DNA from: a bacterium
GTDB lineage: Bacteria; Zhuqueibacterota; Zhuqueibacteria; Oceanimicrobiales; Oceanimicrobiaceae
Assembly: GCA_037446635.1 (NCBI GenBank)
Contig: JBBIIG010000020.1
Coordinates: forward strand, 1-64,000
Direction of reading: 5' to 3'
Length of the DNA: 64,000 nucleotides
Each line of letters begins with the position of its first letter. The stretch's first letter is position 1. The position numbers are program-made. Positions 1 through 9,000 of the stretch are shown one piece after another.

Positions 1-3000
1 TCGTCGAGGAAGCGTTGACATGGTCAACGCACTCCAAAGTTCCAATCATCGACTTTCGTCGAGGAAGCGTTGACATGGTCAACGCACTCCAAAGTTTAAA
101 CCCAGCCGCGATCTTTGCAGGCTTGCGCCACCCGGCTCACGGAGATCACGTACGCCGCGTCACGCATGTAGAGCTGGCGTTTGCGGGCCAATTCACTGAC
201 GGCGATGAACGCCGCGGTCATCTTCACATCCAATTTACCCAGCACTTCGTCCCGCTCCCAGTAATAATTCATGTTGCTTTGCACCTGCTCGAAATAGCTG
301 CAGGTGACGCCGCCGGCGTTGCAAAGGAAATCCGGGATCATGAAAATGCCGCGCTCTTTAATAACTTTATCGGCGTTTGGGGCCGTCGGGCCGTTGGCGC
401 CCTCGGCGATGATTTTCACCCGCTTGCTGATGGTGTTAACATTGTCCATCGTGATCTGATTTTCAAGCGCTGCGGGAATCAGCAGATCGACTTCTTGTTC
501 CAGCCATTTCTCGCCGGGCAGCACTTCATAGCCCAGATCGCGGGCTTTGCTTTTGTCGATGCCGCCGAAGTGGTCGGTGATGGCCTGCAGCTGCGGCAGG
601 TTGACGCCATCTTTTTTGCGGAAGGCATAGGAAGTCTGATCGGCTTGATCCCAACAGGATACGCAGATGACCTTCCCGCCAATTTGATGCAAAAGCTCAA
701 TCGCATACTGCGCGACGTTGCCAAAGCCCTGCACACTGGCGAGCGTGTTTTCGGGCCGGATTCCCAATTCTTTCAGCGCTTCGCGCACGGTGAAAATCAC
801 ACCGTAGCCGGTGGCTTCTTTGCGGCCCAGCGAGCCGCCGAGTCCCACCGGTTTGCCGGTAATCAGCCCCGGATATTTTCCGCCGCGAATGGTTTCGAAT
901 TCGTCGAGCATCCACAGCATGTGTTGGGGGCTGGTCATCACATCCGGCGCCGGCACATCCGCCAGCGGACCGATGTCCCGCGCGATCTGCCGAATCCAGC
1001 CGCGGCAAATCTGCTCTTGCTCGCGTTGGCTCAAGTTGTGGGGGTCGCACACCACGCCACCTTTGCTGCCGCCGAGGGGAATATCGACGACTGCGCATTT
1101 CCAGGTCATCCACATGGCAAGGGCGCGCACAGTGTCGATGGTCTCCTGCGGGTGAAAACGAATACCGCCTTTGCCGGGACCGCGGGCGTCGTTGTGCTGC
1201 ACGCGGAAGCCGCGGAAAATCCGTACGCTGCCGTCGTCCATGCGCACCGGGATGCTGAATTGATATTCGCGCAGCGGCCAGCGCAGCAGCTCGCGCGTGG
1301 CGGAATCGAGCTCGAGCAAATCCGCGACTTTGTCAAACTGCTCTTGCGCCATCTCGAATGAGTTAAAAGGTTTCTTGTTCATACGACTTCCTTTCGCCGT
1401 TTGTCATGGGCTGTAAAACTTGATTATTTTCGAGCATAAAAGCAACTGATTTGCACCTGAAAAAAAACTGCGGCCGGGAATTCCCAGCCGCAGATAAGAG
1501 AGGAAACAGAACATGAACCATACAATTTTCAAATTCTGAAACCCGATTAAGCCAAAAGCGTGCCGAAGTTGAACGAGAATTTTGGAGGGCGATTATCTTA
1601 CTGTTAATCAAATCTTTTATACATTAAAGGGAATGCTTTCGCTATTAAGCAAACTTGCATTTTTGAGAAAATGGCGTTTCGATTTTCCGAATAATGGGAA
1701 AAAAGCGCATTTCCTAATTTTAAGATGTTTTAGCTTTGCCATTCTTATTTTTAAGAGAAAACCGACGCTTCAGCCTACCTGATCGCGGATTTTTCCCGCC
1801 ACTTAAATCAATGAGAAACGATTAGTTAATCCCACCTTTACGGCGCTCCCCCACTTCTGGTATAGATTTTGACAAACTTCGTGGGAACGAAAAGCGCGAA
1901 TATTCATGCTGCACAAAATTAGTAACAAACTCATCCTCGCCGTGGGCAGTACTGCCATCACCATCATCGCCATCTTTTCCTATTTTATCATTGAGTCCCA
2001 GAAGCAGGCGTTGATTTCGCAAATTGAACACAATGCCAACCAACTCAGCGAGACCATCAAAAGCAGCACGAAGTACGATATGTTGCTCAACCAACGCGAT
2101 GGCGTGCACCGCATCATCGACACCATTGGCCAGCAGCAGGGCATCGAGAAAATTCGCATCTTCAATAAGGAAGGCGAGATCATTTATTCGTCGGCGAAAG
2201 AGGAGATCGGCGAGTTCGTGGACAAACAGGCCGAGTCGTGCTACGCCTGCCATGCCGTGGATCAGCCGCTCGAAAAATTGAGCATCACCGAACGCACGCG
2301 CATCTTCGAGCGGAAAGATTCCAGCCTGTCTGGCGTCCGCGCAGCGCCGCCGCCAAGCGGACAGGCAGGCAAAACCCTCGGCATCATCAATCCGATTTAT
2401 AATGAGCCGAGTTGCTGGCAGGCGAGTTGTCATGCTCACGAGGCCGGCCAAAAGGTGTTGGGGGTGCTGGATGTGACGATGTCGCTGGATGAAGTCGAGG
2501 CGCAAATTGCCGCGAACGAAATGCGGATGGTGATGTTTGCGATCAGCGCCATCATCTTTATAAGCCTCATTCTTTGGTTTTTCGTGCAGCGACTCGTCGG
2601 TAAACCGGTGCGCCAGTTGGTGAGCGCCACTAACGCGGTTGCCTGCGGTGATCTCAATTATAAAATCCCCAATCATAAAAAGGACGAGTTGGGCCAGCTC
2701 GCTAAATCTTTCAATGAGATGACCCGCAAGTTAGCGGACGCGCAGCGTCAGCTCATCCAGTCCGATAAACTGGCTTCGTTGGGGCGGCTCGCGGCCGGTG
2801 TGGCGCACGAAATCAACAATCCGCTCACCGGCGTGCTGACCTATAGCAGCTTTCTTTTGAAACGCGCCAACGGTAACGCTGACATGAAGAACGATCTCGA
2901 AGTCATCGTGCGCGAGACCAAACGCTGCCGCCAAATCGTCAAAGGGCTGCTCGATTTTGCGCGCCAGGTGCCGGTGCAAAAAACGCAAGTGGCGATTCCG

Positions 3001-6000: not shown

Positions 6001-9000
6001 ATCAACGGCGTCAACATCCGCCGGCAGTGCTTCCACTGCATCGACCCGACGTGCGTCTCGGCGTGCCCGGTGGCGGCGCTGCAAAAAACCGAGCAAGGTC
6101 CGGTGATCTATCTCGAAGACCGCTGCATGGGCTGCCGCTACTGCATCATGGCGTGCCCGTTTGAGATCCCCAAATACGAATGGGACGCGGTGCTGCCGAA
6201 AGTGCAAAAGTGCATCATGTGTTTTGACAAGCGCGTCTCGCTGGGGCAGCAGCCGGCGTGCACCGCCGCCTGCCCAACCGGCGCCACGATTTTCGGCGAG
6301 CGCGATCAGCTCATCGCCGAAGCGCGCCAACGCATAGCCGACAATCCCGGCAAATACGTGGATCACATCTACGGATTGCACGAGGCCGGCGGCACCTCGG
6401 TGATGTATCTCTCGGACATCCCGTTCGAGCAATTGGGATTCAAAGTCGCCCGCACCGACGTGGCGTATCCCAAGCTCACGTGGGAGGTGCTGTCGAAAAT
6501 CCCCAACATTGTGAGCGTGGGCGGCGTGCTGATGTTCGGCATCTGGTGGGTGATCAATCGCCGCATCACCATGGAAAAAGTCCGCAATGGTGAGATGACA
6601 GAAGAAGAGGCGTTTGGGGAAAAGGAAGAGGAGTAAATGAAGTCCCCCTTAGCAAAGGGGGATTTAGGGGGTTGTCCAAGCTAATGGTGCCAAAAGAACA
6701 ACCCCCTAACCCCCTTTATTAAGGGGGAATACGCTTTGCTCTTTGCGATAAAACCAAAGGACAGAAAATATGGATCTCAAATTACCTAAAATTACTTTCT
6801 GGAAAGCCGTCGCGGCGATGATCTTCGCGGCCGGCTTATATGCCACCATCGTGCGTTTTGCCAAAGGACTGGGCGCGTCCACCAACCTCAGCGACATTTT
6901 CCCGTGGGGAATCTGGATCGGCTTTGACGTGCTGGTGGGCGTTGGGCTCGCGGCCGGCGGCTTTGTGATCGCCGCCACCGTGCACATTTTCCATTTGGAA
7001 AAATATGAATCCATTGCGCGGCCTACCATCCTCACCGCGTTCCTCGGCTACCTGCTGGTGGTTGTGGCGCTGATGTTCGACCTCGGACGGCCGTACCGCA
7101 TCTGGCACCCGCTCATCATGTGGAACCCGCACTCGGTGATGTTCGAAGTAGCCTGGTGCGTCACGTTGTACACCATCGTGCTGGCGCTGGAATTCAGCCC
7201 CATCGTTTTGGAAAAATTCAATCTCAAAGTGCCGCTGAAATTGATACGCAGCATCTATCTGCCCATCGTGATTTTGGGCGTGCTGCTTTCCACGCTGCAC
7301 CAGTCGTCGCTGGGCACGCTGTACGTTTTGGTGCCGGACAAGCTGCACGGCCTGTGGTACTCGCCGCTTTTGCCGGTGTTTTTCTTCGTCTCGGCCATTG
7401 CCGCCGGCCTGGCGATGACCATCTTCGAATCGTTTCTCAGCTATCGCGCCTTTGGCAAGCGTTTGGAACACGATATCCTCGCTGGATTGGGCCGGGTGAT
7501 CGTGGTGGTGTTAGCGGTTTACTTCGTTTTTAAGATTCAGGATCTCCACAGCCGGGGCAACCTGCCGCTGGTCTTCCAACTTACGCCGCAAAGCGTGATG
7601 TTCTGGGGCGAGATGGGGCTTGGAGTGCTGTTACCGATGGCTCTGCTTTTTAGCGAGCGCATTCGCGCCAAAGAATCCGGACTATTTTTCTCGGCGCTGC
7701 TGGTGATAGTGGGCTTCATCGTCAACCGTCTGAACGTCAGCATCACTGGCATGGTGAACTCGGAAACCTACGTCCCCAAGTGGACGGAGTTTGCGGTAAC
7801 GGTCTTCATCGTTGCGCTGGGATTCACGATTTTTGGCTACGCGGTCAAGCACTTCCCGGTTTTCCCAAAAGAAGAATTCGAAGAAGAGAAACCGCTTCGG
7901 CCTGCGATTGATGTAGAGAAGAAACGCCATCCTGTATTTTCCGGCAACGTGGTGATGGCGATGTGGGCGCTGGTGTTAATCGGCGCAGTCACGTATGCTT
8001 TTACCCGCAACTACGAAAATAATCACTCGACCAATACGACGAATGGAGACGCCATTGCGCGAACGGTGGATCCGCAACAGCAGGAACTGAATCTGCCAGA
8101 AGACATCACCTTTGCGCTGGGCGAGGGGAGCCCGGGGCCAGTCACGTTCAGCCACCAAAGCCACGTGTTGATGCAGGAGACGCCCACTTGCGCCACTTGC
8201 CACGCCGAGGGCGGCTTCAGCATTCTAACCGGCGAACCCAAGCCACCGCTGTTGATGGAGCCGATGTACAACGGTGAATCGTGCGGCAAATGCCACAACG
8301 GCGAACAGGCCTTTAGCTCCGAAGAGTGTTCATCTTGTCATATCGAAGAGTGATTTTTAGTACAATGGAGTTCAACCGCAAAGTGTGCCAAGAAAATTCA
8401 AATAGTGCGCATTGGATTAAGTTAAACACATGTGGGTTACTTGTAGTACGGAGACAGGACCATGACGGAGGAGCGAGCAAAAATACTAATCGTCGATGAT
8501 GACAACGAGCTGCTGGTAAGCTGCTCGAAAGTTTTGAAAAACGGCCGTTATGATGTGACGACCATCGCTGACAGTGAACAAGCCGTTACTGCGATCGAAA
8601 GCGGCGAGTATGACCTCATCATCAGCGACTTAAGCATGCCGGGCATGAGTGGCATGACCCTGCTGCGCAAAGCGCAAACCGTCACCCCGGAGGTGCCGTT
8701 CGTGATTTTCAGTGCGTATGGCAGTGTGGAAACCGTGGTCGAGGCCATGCGCGAAGGCGCGTTCGATTTTATTGAGAAGCCATTCAAGGCCGATCGCCTG
8801 AAGGTGGTGGTCGAGAAATCGCTCAGCCACCGTAATCTTTTCAAAGAAAAAAAGGCGTTGGAAAGCGAGTTGCGCAAGCGCTACAGTTTCGACGCGCTGA
8901 TCGGCAAAAGTCCGGCGATGCAGCAGGTGTTTGATTTGATCACCCGTGTGGCCGAAGGCGAATCCAATATCGCCATCATTGGGGAAAGCGGAACCGGCAA

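Follow-up and report, generated by a model that had tools for sequence, protein, structure and literature searches.

The window, a 64,000-nt stretch (positions 1 to 64,000 of contig JBBIIG010000020.1, assembly GCA_037446635.1) from a bacterium of the Oceanimicrobiaceae, contains six intact, co-directional genes on the + strand between 1906 and 9883. They encode a kinase, a soluble regulator (REC-H), an anchored regulator (TM-REC-H-tail), an Fe-S protein, an NrfD-c7 protein and a sigma-54 activator (Table 1). Every gene lies at the coordinates given in an initial annotation, and all reading frames are open. Pfam searches returned the domains claimed there for the two regulators (Response_reg 8-113 and GCV_H 146-251 in g01984; Response_reg 67-176 and GCV_H 221-332 in g01985), together with Fer4_11 in the Fe-S protein, NrfD and Cytochrome_C7 in the next protein, and a receiver and sigma-54 AAA+ domain in the activator. 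The start of the soluble regulator gene overlaps the kinase stop codon (4 nt). A scan for sigma-70-like promoters gave 6 sites against 6.4 expected by chance, and no sigma-54 site (up to 2 mismatches) was found upstream of the kinase gene. The hairpin repeat between the two regulator genes was ruled out as part of the mechanism; it has 89 matches across 35 contigs. A glutamate dehydrogenase gene adjoins the cassette in divergent orientation.

Table 1. Genes and features of the locus, with the evidence for each assignment
Position	Strand	Feature	Evidence
1906..3480	+	Sensor histidine kinase, 524 aa	Pfam, motif and TM analysis
3477..4259	+	Soluble REC-H (receiver and lipoate-free H fold), 260 aa, tail-less	Pfam, alignment
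4270..4419	.	Intergenic hairpin, 8-nt AATGGAGT-type repeats	Repeat occurs genome-wide
4467..5633	+	TM-REC-H-tail (anchored receiver, lipoate-free H fold and helical tail), 388 aa	Pfam, model, alignment
5860..6636	+	4x[4Fe-4S] HybA/HmcB/FdnH-like protein, 258 aa	Pfam, profile, TM and motif analysis
6770..8353	+	HybB/HmcC-like NrfD subunit (10 TM) with 11th TM and trihaem c7 domain, 527 aa	Pfam, profile, TM analysis
8462..9883	+	NtrC-type sigma-54 activator	Pfam, identity comparison

The kinase and its two H-fold regulators

The kinase has two TM helices with a periplasmic haem-Cache-like domain between them, and HAMP, HisKA and HATPase domains. Its periplasmic domain carries two haem-c-type motifs, CYACH at position 112 (CxxCH) and CWQASCH at position 170 (CxxxxCH), both of which were invariant in 35 sequences. 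The sensor matched the profiles of the Geobacter haem sensors 3b42 (E 1e-5) and 3b47 (E 0.004), and its match to PF21563 scored below the cut-off. The DHp subtype is 'type A' (NPLTGVLTYSSFLLKR). Receiver-fused forms possess their own dedicated kinase subtype; in a quick tree, a branch with a support of 98 split the kinases preceding REC-H genes (32/32) from those preceding the protease of the unfused cassette described below (41/41).

The receivers of both regulators retain every signature residue for phosphorylation and, as had been claimed, neither protein has a DNA-binding output. Residues D12, E13, D55 and K105 of the soluble form were invariant (n=11 sequences), and D71, D72, D115, T143 and K165 of the anchored form were present in 120/120 homologues. 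The anchored receiver is unusually conserved (77% mean identity), suggesting extra contacts. Gene adjacency, kinase subtype and the conserved signatures suggest that the kinase phosphorylates both receivers. We rejected an origin of the fused receiver from the unfused cassette's sigma-54 activator, to which it is 39.5% identical, compared with 40.3% for unrelated activators. The H fold had been described as the only other part of g01985; this protein also has an N-terminal TM helix (residues 2-20) and a C-terminal tail of ~60 residues. The N-terminus is hydrophobic in 117/120 homologues, and Asp17 within the TM helix (41/42) is kept across both kinase subtypes. The soluble form is accessory, and 28 of the 43 loci with an anchored form have one.

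The H fold is confirmed by an AF2 model (pLDDT 81) and a Foldseek target-TM of ~0.9 to the E. coli H protein. The reported absence of the lipoyl-lysine was borne out: both regulators have Ser at the lipoyl column (Ser274 in the anchored form), and Lys is rare there, occurring in 1/120 homologues of the anchored regulator and 4/97 REC+H representatives of the soluble one, in agreement with the earlier 5/120. The acidic residue three positions before the lipoyl site is mostly Lys or Arg in the anchored family (E in 1/120), and no alternative invariant attachment residue was found in the H-domain hairpin of the regulator alignments. The genome's true GcvH, encoded on another contig (C5), retains EAVKAV. 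The H domains score 53-81 bits against cut-offs of 116-117 for TIGR00527/PRK01202 and belong to multidomain proteins, not to stand-alone ones of ~125 aa. Judged by sequence, the H fold of both regulators cannot bind lipoate. A fold search with the model of an unfused H-tail protein returned only H proteins and lipoyl/biotinyl-type domains, though this search barely probed the tail; the H fold of the unfused relative had a Z of 19.6 to H protein. The nearest ESM Atlas clusters, which serve as leads only, were GCV_H-labelled (0.84-0.85).

The membrane module and the activator

The Fe-S/NrfD pair had been labelled NrfC/NrfD, but the best scores were to HmcB/HybA and HmcC/HybB instead, all under the equivalog cut-offs (bits/cut-off of 205/263 for HybA, 289/450 for HybB, 242/420 for HmcB and 334/550 for HmcC). 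Linkage of these genes to the regulators is strong, as claimed, with NrfD in 39/43 loci of at least 10 kb. The NrfD subunit retains D104, S122, R84, Y94, E141, H177 and R320, which correspond, matched by offset only, to quinone-site and proton-path residues of HybB given in PMC8076601; D104 and S122 stand for the quinone-site Asp and Ser, and R320 for the mid-membrane Arg. Within 1906-9883 we found neither a Tat-bearing catalytic partner nor a catalytic subunit belonging to the module; a partner may be encoded elsewhere in the genome.

The Fe-S protein has 16 invariant Cys and a C-terminal TM anchor (214-232). It lacks a Tat signal, and an in-frame stop lies just 5' of its start codon. By a motif-based count, 42/87 homologues have a Tat-like leader and 45/87 do not, the latter usually coming after a TM-H gene. 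The closest solved relative is FdnH (E 1.5e-50), which faces the periplasm, is C-tail-anchored and is exported with a Tat partner. The basic NRR after the TM helix implies a cytoplasmic C-terminus, and the Fe-S protein probably lies in the periplasm. Because the H domain is cytoplasmic, direct docking onto the Fe-S protein is doubtful. The activator belongs to a subfamily that recurs close to other loci of the fused type (it is 66-70% identical to the proteins of L034, L036 and L159), and it was ruled out as the activator of the unfused cassette.

Receiver-fused and unfused cassettes

A commoner cassette encodes unfused H-fold proteins with a DGG loop, which travel with a triad of kinase, sigma-54 activator and archaemetzincin. 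This archaemetzincin passes the NF033823 cut-off and has an intact HExxH. The DGG was present in 98/98 unfused proteins with TM or other tails, 32/35 with Cys-rich tails and 0/48 receiver-fused tails, of which 6 had a DG remnant; the fused protein of L217 was flagged under a loose motif pattern and has no DGG by the strict count. In the anchored regulator the loop is decayed (residues ~355-371). Where present, the DGG is invariant, even though the model is at its least ordered in this loop. Our searches of this genome found no DGG, no Cys-rich H gene and no archaemetzincin.

Among 71 genomes of Ignavibacteria, the protease was present in 34/34 with the short, unfused form, in 0/5 with only the fused form and in 2/32 with neither. 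Within the bacterium's own phylum (151 genomes), a cassette-type protease occurred in 27/30 genomes with a DGG module located independently of the protease and in 1/26 fused-type genomes without an observed DGG module. There are exceptions to the association: G116 has a DGG module without the protease, G086 and G111 hold only a stand-alone archaemetzincin, and in L113 the gene for a Cys-rich H protein whose motif is decayed lies directly beside that for a protease. No DGG module was found in G121, G148 and G161, incomplete or fragmented assemblies that have the triad. Two syntenic swaps (L070 versus L039 and L056 versus L208) lost the protease and the DGG and kept the kinase and activator of the unfused cassette, the activators being 73-76% identical.

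The fused H domains formed one group (22/22 rows, support 96, quick tree of 116 columns). Because the fusion has a single origin, the exclusion of the protease from fused forms may reflect a single loss or just a few. Descent of REC-H from the Cys-rich H protein was not supported, the 11 REC-H rows standing apart on long branches near true GcvH in a short alignment. The H fold had been framed as a class of response-regulator output; most sampled members have no receiver (133 unfused versus 48 fused tails), and the receiver is the late addition. Most of the 80 loci from a contig scan keyed on receiver motifs held unrelated receivers and 10 held full-length fused proteins by query coverage, so these 80 loci do not measure the family's range. 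The window holds a derived, fused version of a widespread cassette, as yet unstudied, that adjoins a membrane respiratory module. A small zinc protease and the DGG loop that goes with it seem to have given way, in the fused version, to a phosphorylation switch.

Function of the cassette and relation to known systems

Our best explanation, to which we give about even odds (roughly 0.5), is that a phospho-switched H-fold subunit tunes the membrane module. A periplasmic redox or gas cue would be sensed by the haem-bearing kinase, which would then phosphorylate the two receivers, as gene coupling and the conserved signatures suggest. The core would be the anchored regulator, a membrane-tethered H-fold subunit from an old cassette found alongside a HybAB/HmcBC-like, quinone-reactive module, and its lipoate-free H fold might serve as a cytoplasmic protein-contact surface. 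Phosphorylation could change the pairing of the anchored regulator, with itself or with soluble REC-H, and so tune the assembly or activity of the module. The likeliest route would lead via the membrane helix, with its conserved Asp17, to the side of NrfD that faces the cytoplasm, and not via the Fe-S protein. In the unfused cassette, the archaemetzincin, encoded with kinase and sigma-54 activator, would control the H-fold subunits via the exposed DGG loop; protease and loop are correlated, and we infer the contact between them. The fused variant would have arisen once, by gain of the receiver and its kinase subtype and loss of protease and loop. A bolder version, in which the two-component pathway ends on membrane-tethered H-fold subunits gating a quinone-reactive module and an ancestral archaemetzincin cut at the DGG was rewired to phosphorylation, seems rather doubtful to us. 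According to PMC3427221, one archaemetzincin had no activity, the groove of another hinted at basic or hydrophobic substrates, CarG was a non-proteolytic adaptor relative, and natural substrates were reported as unknown in 2012; given these observations, cleavage at the DGG is only a guess.

Against our explanation, the kinase is linked as tightly (40/43 loci, always directly upstream in the fused type) as NrfD. A tentative alternative places the H-fold proteins on the signalling side, where they would bind the haem kinase, or else the sigma-54 activator, and modulate it by acting as a connector, feedback inhibitor or phosphate sink, perhaps relaying the state of the module to the kinase. The redox module would in that case provide an input or simply be one more target under the same control. 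In G141, which is 93% complete, the triad and two H-fold genes are retained and no cassette NrfD was found, and the REC-H of Nitrospirota G160 lies in a cluster of signalling genes only, with no NrfD match other than a remote one. The conservation of the anchored receiver and a module without its own catalytic subunit also favour a role on the signalling side. However, G116 has lost the triad yet keeps H genes with Fe-S, NrfD and cytochrome genes, the H genes are interleaved with the Fe-S gene and often directly 5' of it, and Asp17 is conserved in both kinase subtypes.

The initial annotation's proposal of an H fold plugging into the Fe-S/NrfD proteins was not supported, given a cytoplasmic H domain, a periplasm-facing FdnH relative and G141. 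Its explicit form, an H domain docked on a Tat-less, cytoplasmic Fe-S protein and gating electron exchange with some cytoplasmic partner, would fit the missing Tat signal here and in about half of the homologues, and barrel-sandwich folds do occur in redox complexes (NqrA and RnfC, weak matches). We consider it improbable, because it conflicts with the topology of FdnH, the NRR behind the TM helix, the Tat-like leaders of the other homologues and a c7 domain that must be periplasmic. Contact with the kinase, or contact made through the membrane helix, is more probable for the H domain than contact with the Fe-S protein. The complete H-protein fold and the neighbouring glutamate dehydrogenase gene could also mean that the H domains act on lipoate-using metabolism, as decoys or as regulators of the glycine cleavage P/T/L proteins or of lipoate ligases, or that they are still covalently modified. 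This is very improbable considering the lost Lys, the altered residue before it and the hairpin's lack of an invariant substitute, and we saw no genes for glycine cleavage or lipoylation recurring next to 38 cassette loci (clusters inspected by eye, partly with Pfam).

A full-text literature search, with subscription journals and supplements outside its scope, found no published account of the cassette or of a receiver-GcvH fusion. The locus is an undescribed variant of two-component signalling whose target we infer. If our explanation of a phospho-switched subunit is true, a large class of genes that are wrongly labelled 'glycine cleavage H protein' in anaerobes from many phyla would gain a function, two-component signalling a new output domain, and NrfD-type respiratory modules a post-translational control. 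Archaemetzincins would gain a concrete candidate substrate or partner, which would be the family's first natural substrate if the DGG is indeed cut, and the fused and unfused versions would be a natural experiment in which one control mode was swapped for another.

The kinase resembles the sCache_heme sensors GSU0935 and GSU0582 in its predicted Cache-like domain, which lies in the periplasm and is flanked by two TM helices, its HAMP domain and an equivalently placed haem motif, which here is CxxxxCH, with an extra CxxCH upstream. One signalling-associated sCache_heme member binds NO, according to bioRxiv 10.64898/2026.02.01.703092. The archaemetzincins (PF07998, NF033823), which have the CarG adaptor as a relative, include the protease of the unfused cassette, and this genome lacks it. 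The membrane module has its closest counterparts in HybA/HybB (E. coli hydrogenase 2), in HmcB/HmcC and NhcB/NhcC from sulfate reducers, and in FdnH. It has in common with this group a 4x[4Fe-4S] subunit with a C-tail, a 10-TM NrfD-type subunit with quinone-site residues and an attached c-type cytochrome. In contrast to the group, the c7 is fused, there is no Tat signal and no catalytic subunit in the operon, and H-fold proteins are encoded alongside. With GcvH (PF01597, TIGR00527) and its lipoylated relatives GcvH-L, not_gcvH and GcvH_rel_desulf the regulators share the fold, at ~30% identity, but they lack the lipoyl-lysine, score under all curated cut-offs, are not encoded beside gcvT/P and have the H fold joined to a receiver, a membrane anchor and a helical tail. 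Response regulators whose output binds proteins, or that are tethered to the membrane, are known, for example those of CheY and RssB type. They have in common with the regulators described here a phosphorylatable receiver and no DNA-binding domain, but the output in this case is an H-protein fold.

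H-fold regulators, haem kinase and membrane module

All six window genes proposed in the initial annotation were found, with open reading frames in one direction, and their assigned Pfam domains were reproduced. The proposed H fold without lipoyl-lysine was also borne out: compared with the genome's true GcvH, the soluble REC-H protein g01984 (a receiver joined to an H fold) and the membrane-anchored g01985 both have Ser at the lipoyl column. By tblastn, these two and the true GcvH on contig C5 are the three H-fold genes of the genome. Lys occupies the lipoyl column in 1/120 close homologues of g01985 and in 4/97 REC+H representatives of g01984 (97 of the 150 matches listed had both domains), and in the g01985 family the acidic residue 3 positions ahead is mostly replaced by Lys or Arg. 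Both window H domains score far below the GcvH cut-offs. Despite this, the H fold of g01985 is intact as modeled by AF2 (pLDDT 81; target-TM ∼0.9 to the E. coli H protein). Receiver signature residues are invariant in the families of both window receivers.

The initial annotation had missed two parts of g01985, a C-terminal helix-loop-helix tail and an N-terminal TM helix (residues 2-20). Basic residues follow the helix, which by sequence rules for topology places receiver and H domain in the cytoplasm, and Asp17 within it is conserved in 41/42 fused and unfused relatives. Also missed were the CxxCH and CxxxxCH motifs, both invariant, in the periplasmic domain of the kinase, which resembles Geobacter haem sensors. 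Domains of this kind are named sCache_heme in a preprint (10.64898/2026.02.01.703092), according to which one signalling-associated member binds NO.

The Fe-S and NrfD proteins are nearest to HmcB/HybA and HmcC/HybB, with scores below those cut-offs. Like FdnH, its best solved relative, the Fe-S protein is anchored at its C-terminus; it has no Tat signal. NrfD residues correspond, by offset only, to the HybB quinone-site and proton-path residues given in PMC8076601; judged by these residues, NrfD looks like a functional quinone-reactive subunit. No catalytic subunit was found within the six-gene operon.

Receiver fusion, protease and the DGG loop

We compared 40 loci of the window's phylum and further loci of other phyla and distinguished two architectures. 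The fused type combines a kinase, an optional REC-H and a TM-REC-H-tail protein, with Fe-S, NrfD and cytochrome genes close by. In the unfused type, genes for TM-H-tail and Cys-rich-H-tail proteins without receivers lie around Fe-S/NrfD and are accompanied by a triad that comprises a haem kinase, a sigma-54 activator and an archaemetzincin. We saw the fused type in the window's phylum (KSB1 according to homologue names), Ignavibacteria, Caldithrix, Acidobacteriota and one gammaproteobacterial MAG; further hosts of the unfused type are Bacteroidales, Gemmatimonadota and others. Among the fused-type loci that span 10 kb or more (n = 43), NrfD was present in 39/43, haem kinase in 40/43, soluble REC-H in 28/43 and a protease in 2/43.

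A DGG motif marks the unfused tail loop. Counted by unique tails, it is present in 98/98 unfused TM/other, 32/35 Cys-rich and 0/48 fused tails; six fused tails keep a DG remnant, and the three Cys-rich exceptions all come from loci that also hold the fused type. Across 37 unfused sequences DGG is invariant, whereas only two core positions are. The surface loop that bears it is the most poorly ordered of the unfused model (pLDDT 63), and the equivalent loop of g01985 has pLDDT <50.

Co-occurrence was counted in incomplete assemblies, among which related genomes are not independent of each other: within the window's phylum (151 genomes scored; two unpublished genomes excluded), a DGG module was identified without reference to the protease in 30 genomes, 27 of which had the cassette-type protease. 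Five more modules, located by searching beside a protease, were excluded from the 30. Two exceptions (genomes G086 and G111) have only the stand-alone protease type and the third, G116, has no protease. The fused form was found in 31 genomes, 26 of them without a visible DGG module (its divergent subtype was searched for specifically in only 10 genomes). The cassette protease is present in only one of these 26, the 78% complete G121; another fused-form genome in which no DGG module was seen, G094, has an unrelated long protease. Among 71 Ignavibacteria, 39 have an H-tail gene, 36 a protease and 34 both (DGG read directly in 11, the others classed by frame length), and the five with an H-tail gene and no protease were verified to have the fused form only.

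In two syntenic pairs of loci (L070/L039 and L056/L208) the fused operon occupies the place of TM-H[DGG] and protease, while the old kinase and activator stay; DGG is therefore tied to the protease and not to that kinase/activator. Sequence comparison thus points to receiver fusion as a replacement for protease and DGG loop. Since the fused H domains form one group in a tree, independent losses may be few. The protease may either cut the H-tail or only bind it; PMC3427221 reports that one archaemetzincin showed no activity, that the groove of another suggests basic/hydrophobic substrates, and that CarG is an inactive adaptor.

The DHp string NPLTGVLTYSSFLLKR is common to the fused-type kinases, which separate from 41/41 protease-linked kinases in a quick tree. 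The first helix is similar between the receivers of g01984 and g01985; their origin from the sigma-54 activator of the unfused cassette was rejected on sequence comparison. The sigma-54 activator of the window's six genes (8462-9883) belongs to a separate subfamily found near some fused-type loci. Many fused-type loci have a receiver-less sigma-54 activator upstream of the module (L037:13630-14973, L045:17044-17442, L036, L040, L044, L074, L078), with a PAS domain in the one scanned and accompanied in some loci by a small NifX/NifB-like protein.

Bacteroidales have a TM-H[DGG] protein with an N-terminal periplasmic-binding-protein-like domain (PBP_like_2; L114:3929-5623, L116, L123, L134, L136, L138), which adds a third input type to the H-tail. 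Soluble H-tail proteins (L035:15593-16393 and 34 relatives) have a Cys-rich N-terminal domain, C-x12-C-x5-C-x2-C, with four invariant Cys and no Pfam match, probably a Zn or Fe-S site.

Candidate target of the H-fold subunits

In both architectures the kinase signal would plausibly end on the H-fold subunits, reaching them indirectly via the co-encoded protease in the unfused type and directly via the joined receiver in the fused type. We infer that the window kinase phosphorylates the receivers and that the H-fold regulators act on their target through protein contact. We give a probability of about one half to the membrane module being this target, contacted via the TM helix or the cytoplasmic face of NrfD. 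Against it, genome G141 retains H genes and triad and the cassette NrfD was not found there, and the REC-H of G160 sits in a signalling-only cluster. Action on the kinase/activator instead is a tentative alternative, against which G116 retains H genes with NrfD after triad loss. Direct docking of the H domain on a cytoplasmic Fe-S protein is improbable, and a lipoate-related role of the H domains more improbable still.

In Nitrospirota, locus L080 has REC-H beside only a haem kinase, a lone receiver and a sigma-54 activator; the cassette NrfD was not found in that genome.

Respiratory surroundings and known systems

A large respiratory island makes up the window: its 17 + strand ORFs with CxxCH motifs carry 105 of them in total, and it also encodes Rieske/cytochrome b sets and NapA.

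Features of the window
Feature	Position	Strand	Remarks
Sigma-54-like site	1550-1565	-	window's best, 1 mismatch; upstream of divergent glutamate dehydrogenase gene (96-1382)
Intergenic palindromic repeats	4270-4419, 6643-6728, 5634-5859		between the genes
Respiratory island	9834-55535		at least 15 multihaem/monohaem c-type cytochrome genes; three Rieske/cytochrome b-like sets; two octahaem HAO-like proteins; NapC-like protein
Four multihaem cytochromes	9834-11318, 25199-27994, 28859-31867, 41430-43109		7-9 CxxCH; C-terminal Por_Secre_tail (T9SS-type sorting) domain
Two probable outer-membrane proteins	43179-44462 and 45693-46922; 15450-16823		no Pfam or NCBIfam match
NapA	52465-54807		Tat-bearing; score over NapA cut-off
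LarC-, LarB-, LarE-like and nickel-transporter-like genes	55566-59268	-	nickel-pincer cofactor set; LarC and AIRC domains observed; LarB and LarE names presumed

The Por_Secre_tail domains suggest that the four cytochromes are exported to the surface; one has an additional ethylbenzene-dehydrogenase-like haem domain. The first probable outer-membrane protein lies near a 14-haem cytochrome, with which it possibly forms a porin-cytochrome conduit, and recurs in relatives with similar cytochromes beside the cassette (clusters c11/c9). As a set, sigma-54-like matches in the window were not above chance. Of the intergenic repeats, the 8-nt AATGGAGT hairpin was matched 89 times across 35 contigs and the CCCCCTT...AAGGGGG element 8 times across 5.

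Database names for homologues stop at 'response regulator' or 'H lipoate-binding protein'. Full-text literature searches, which covered few subscription papers, turned up no account of either the cassette or a receiver-GcvH fusion, although a domain census in a supplement might include the architecture. The cassette is real and conserved, and apparently an undescribed, novel variant of two-component signalling with a candidate target. Every part belongs to known families, and none qualifies as GcvH, HybAB or HmcBC proper.
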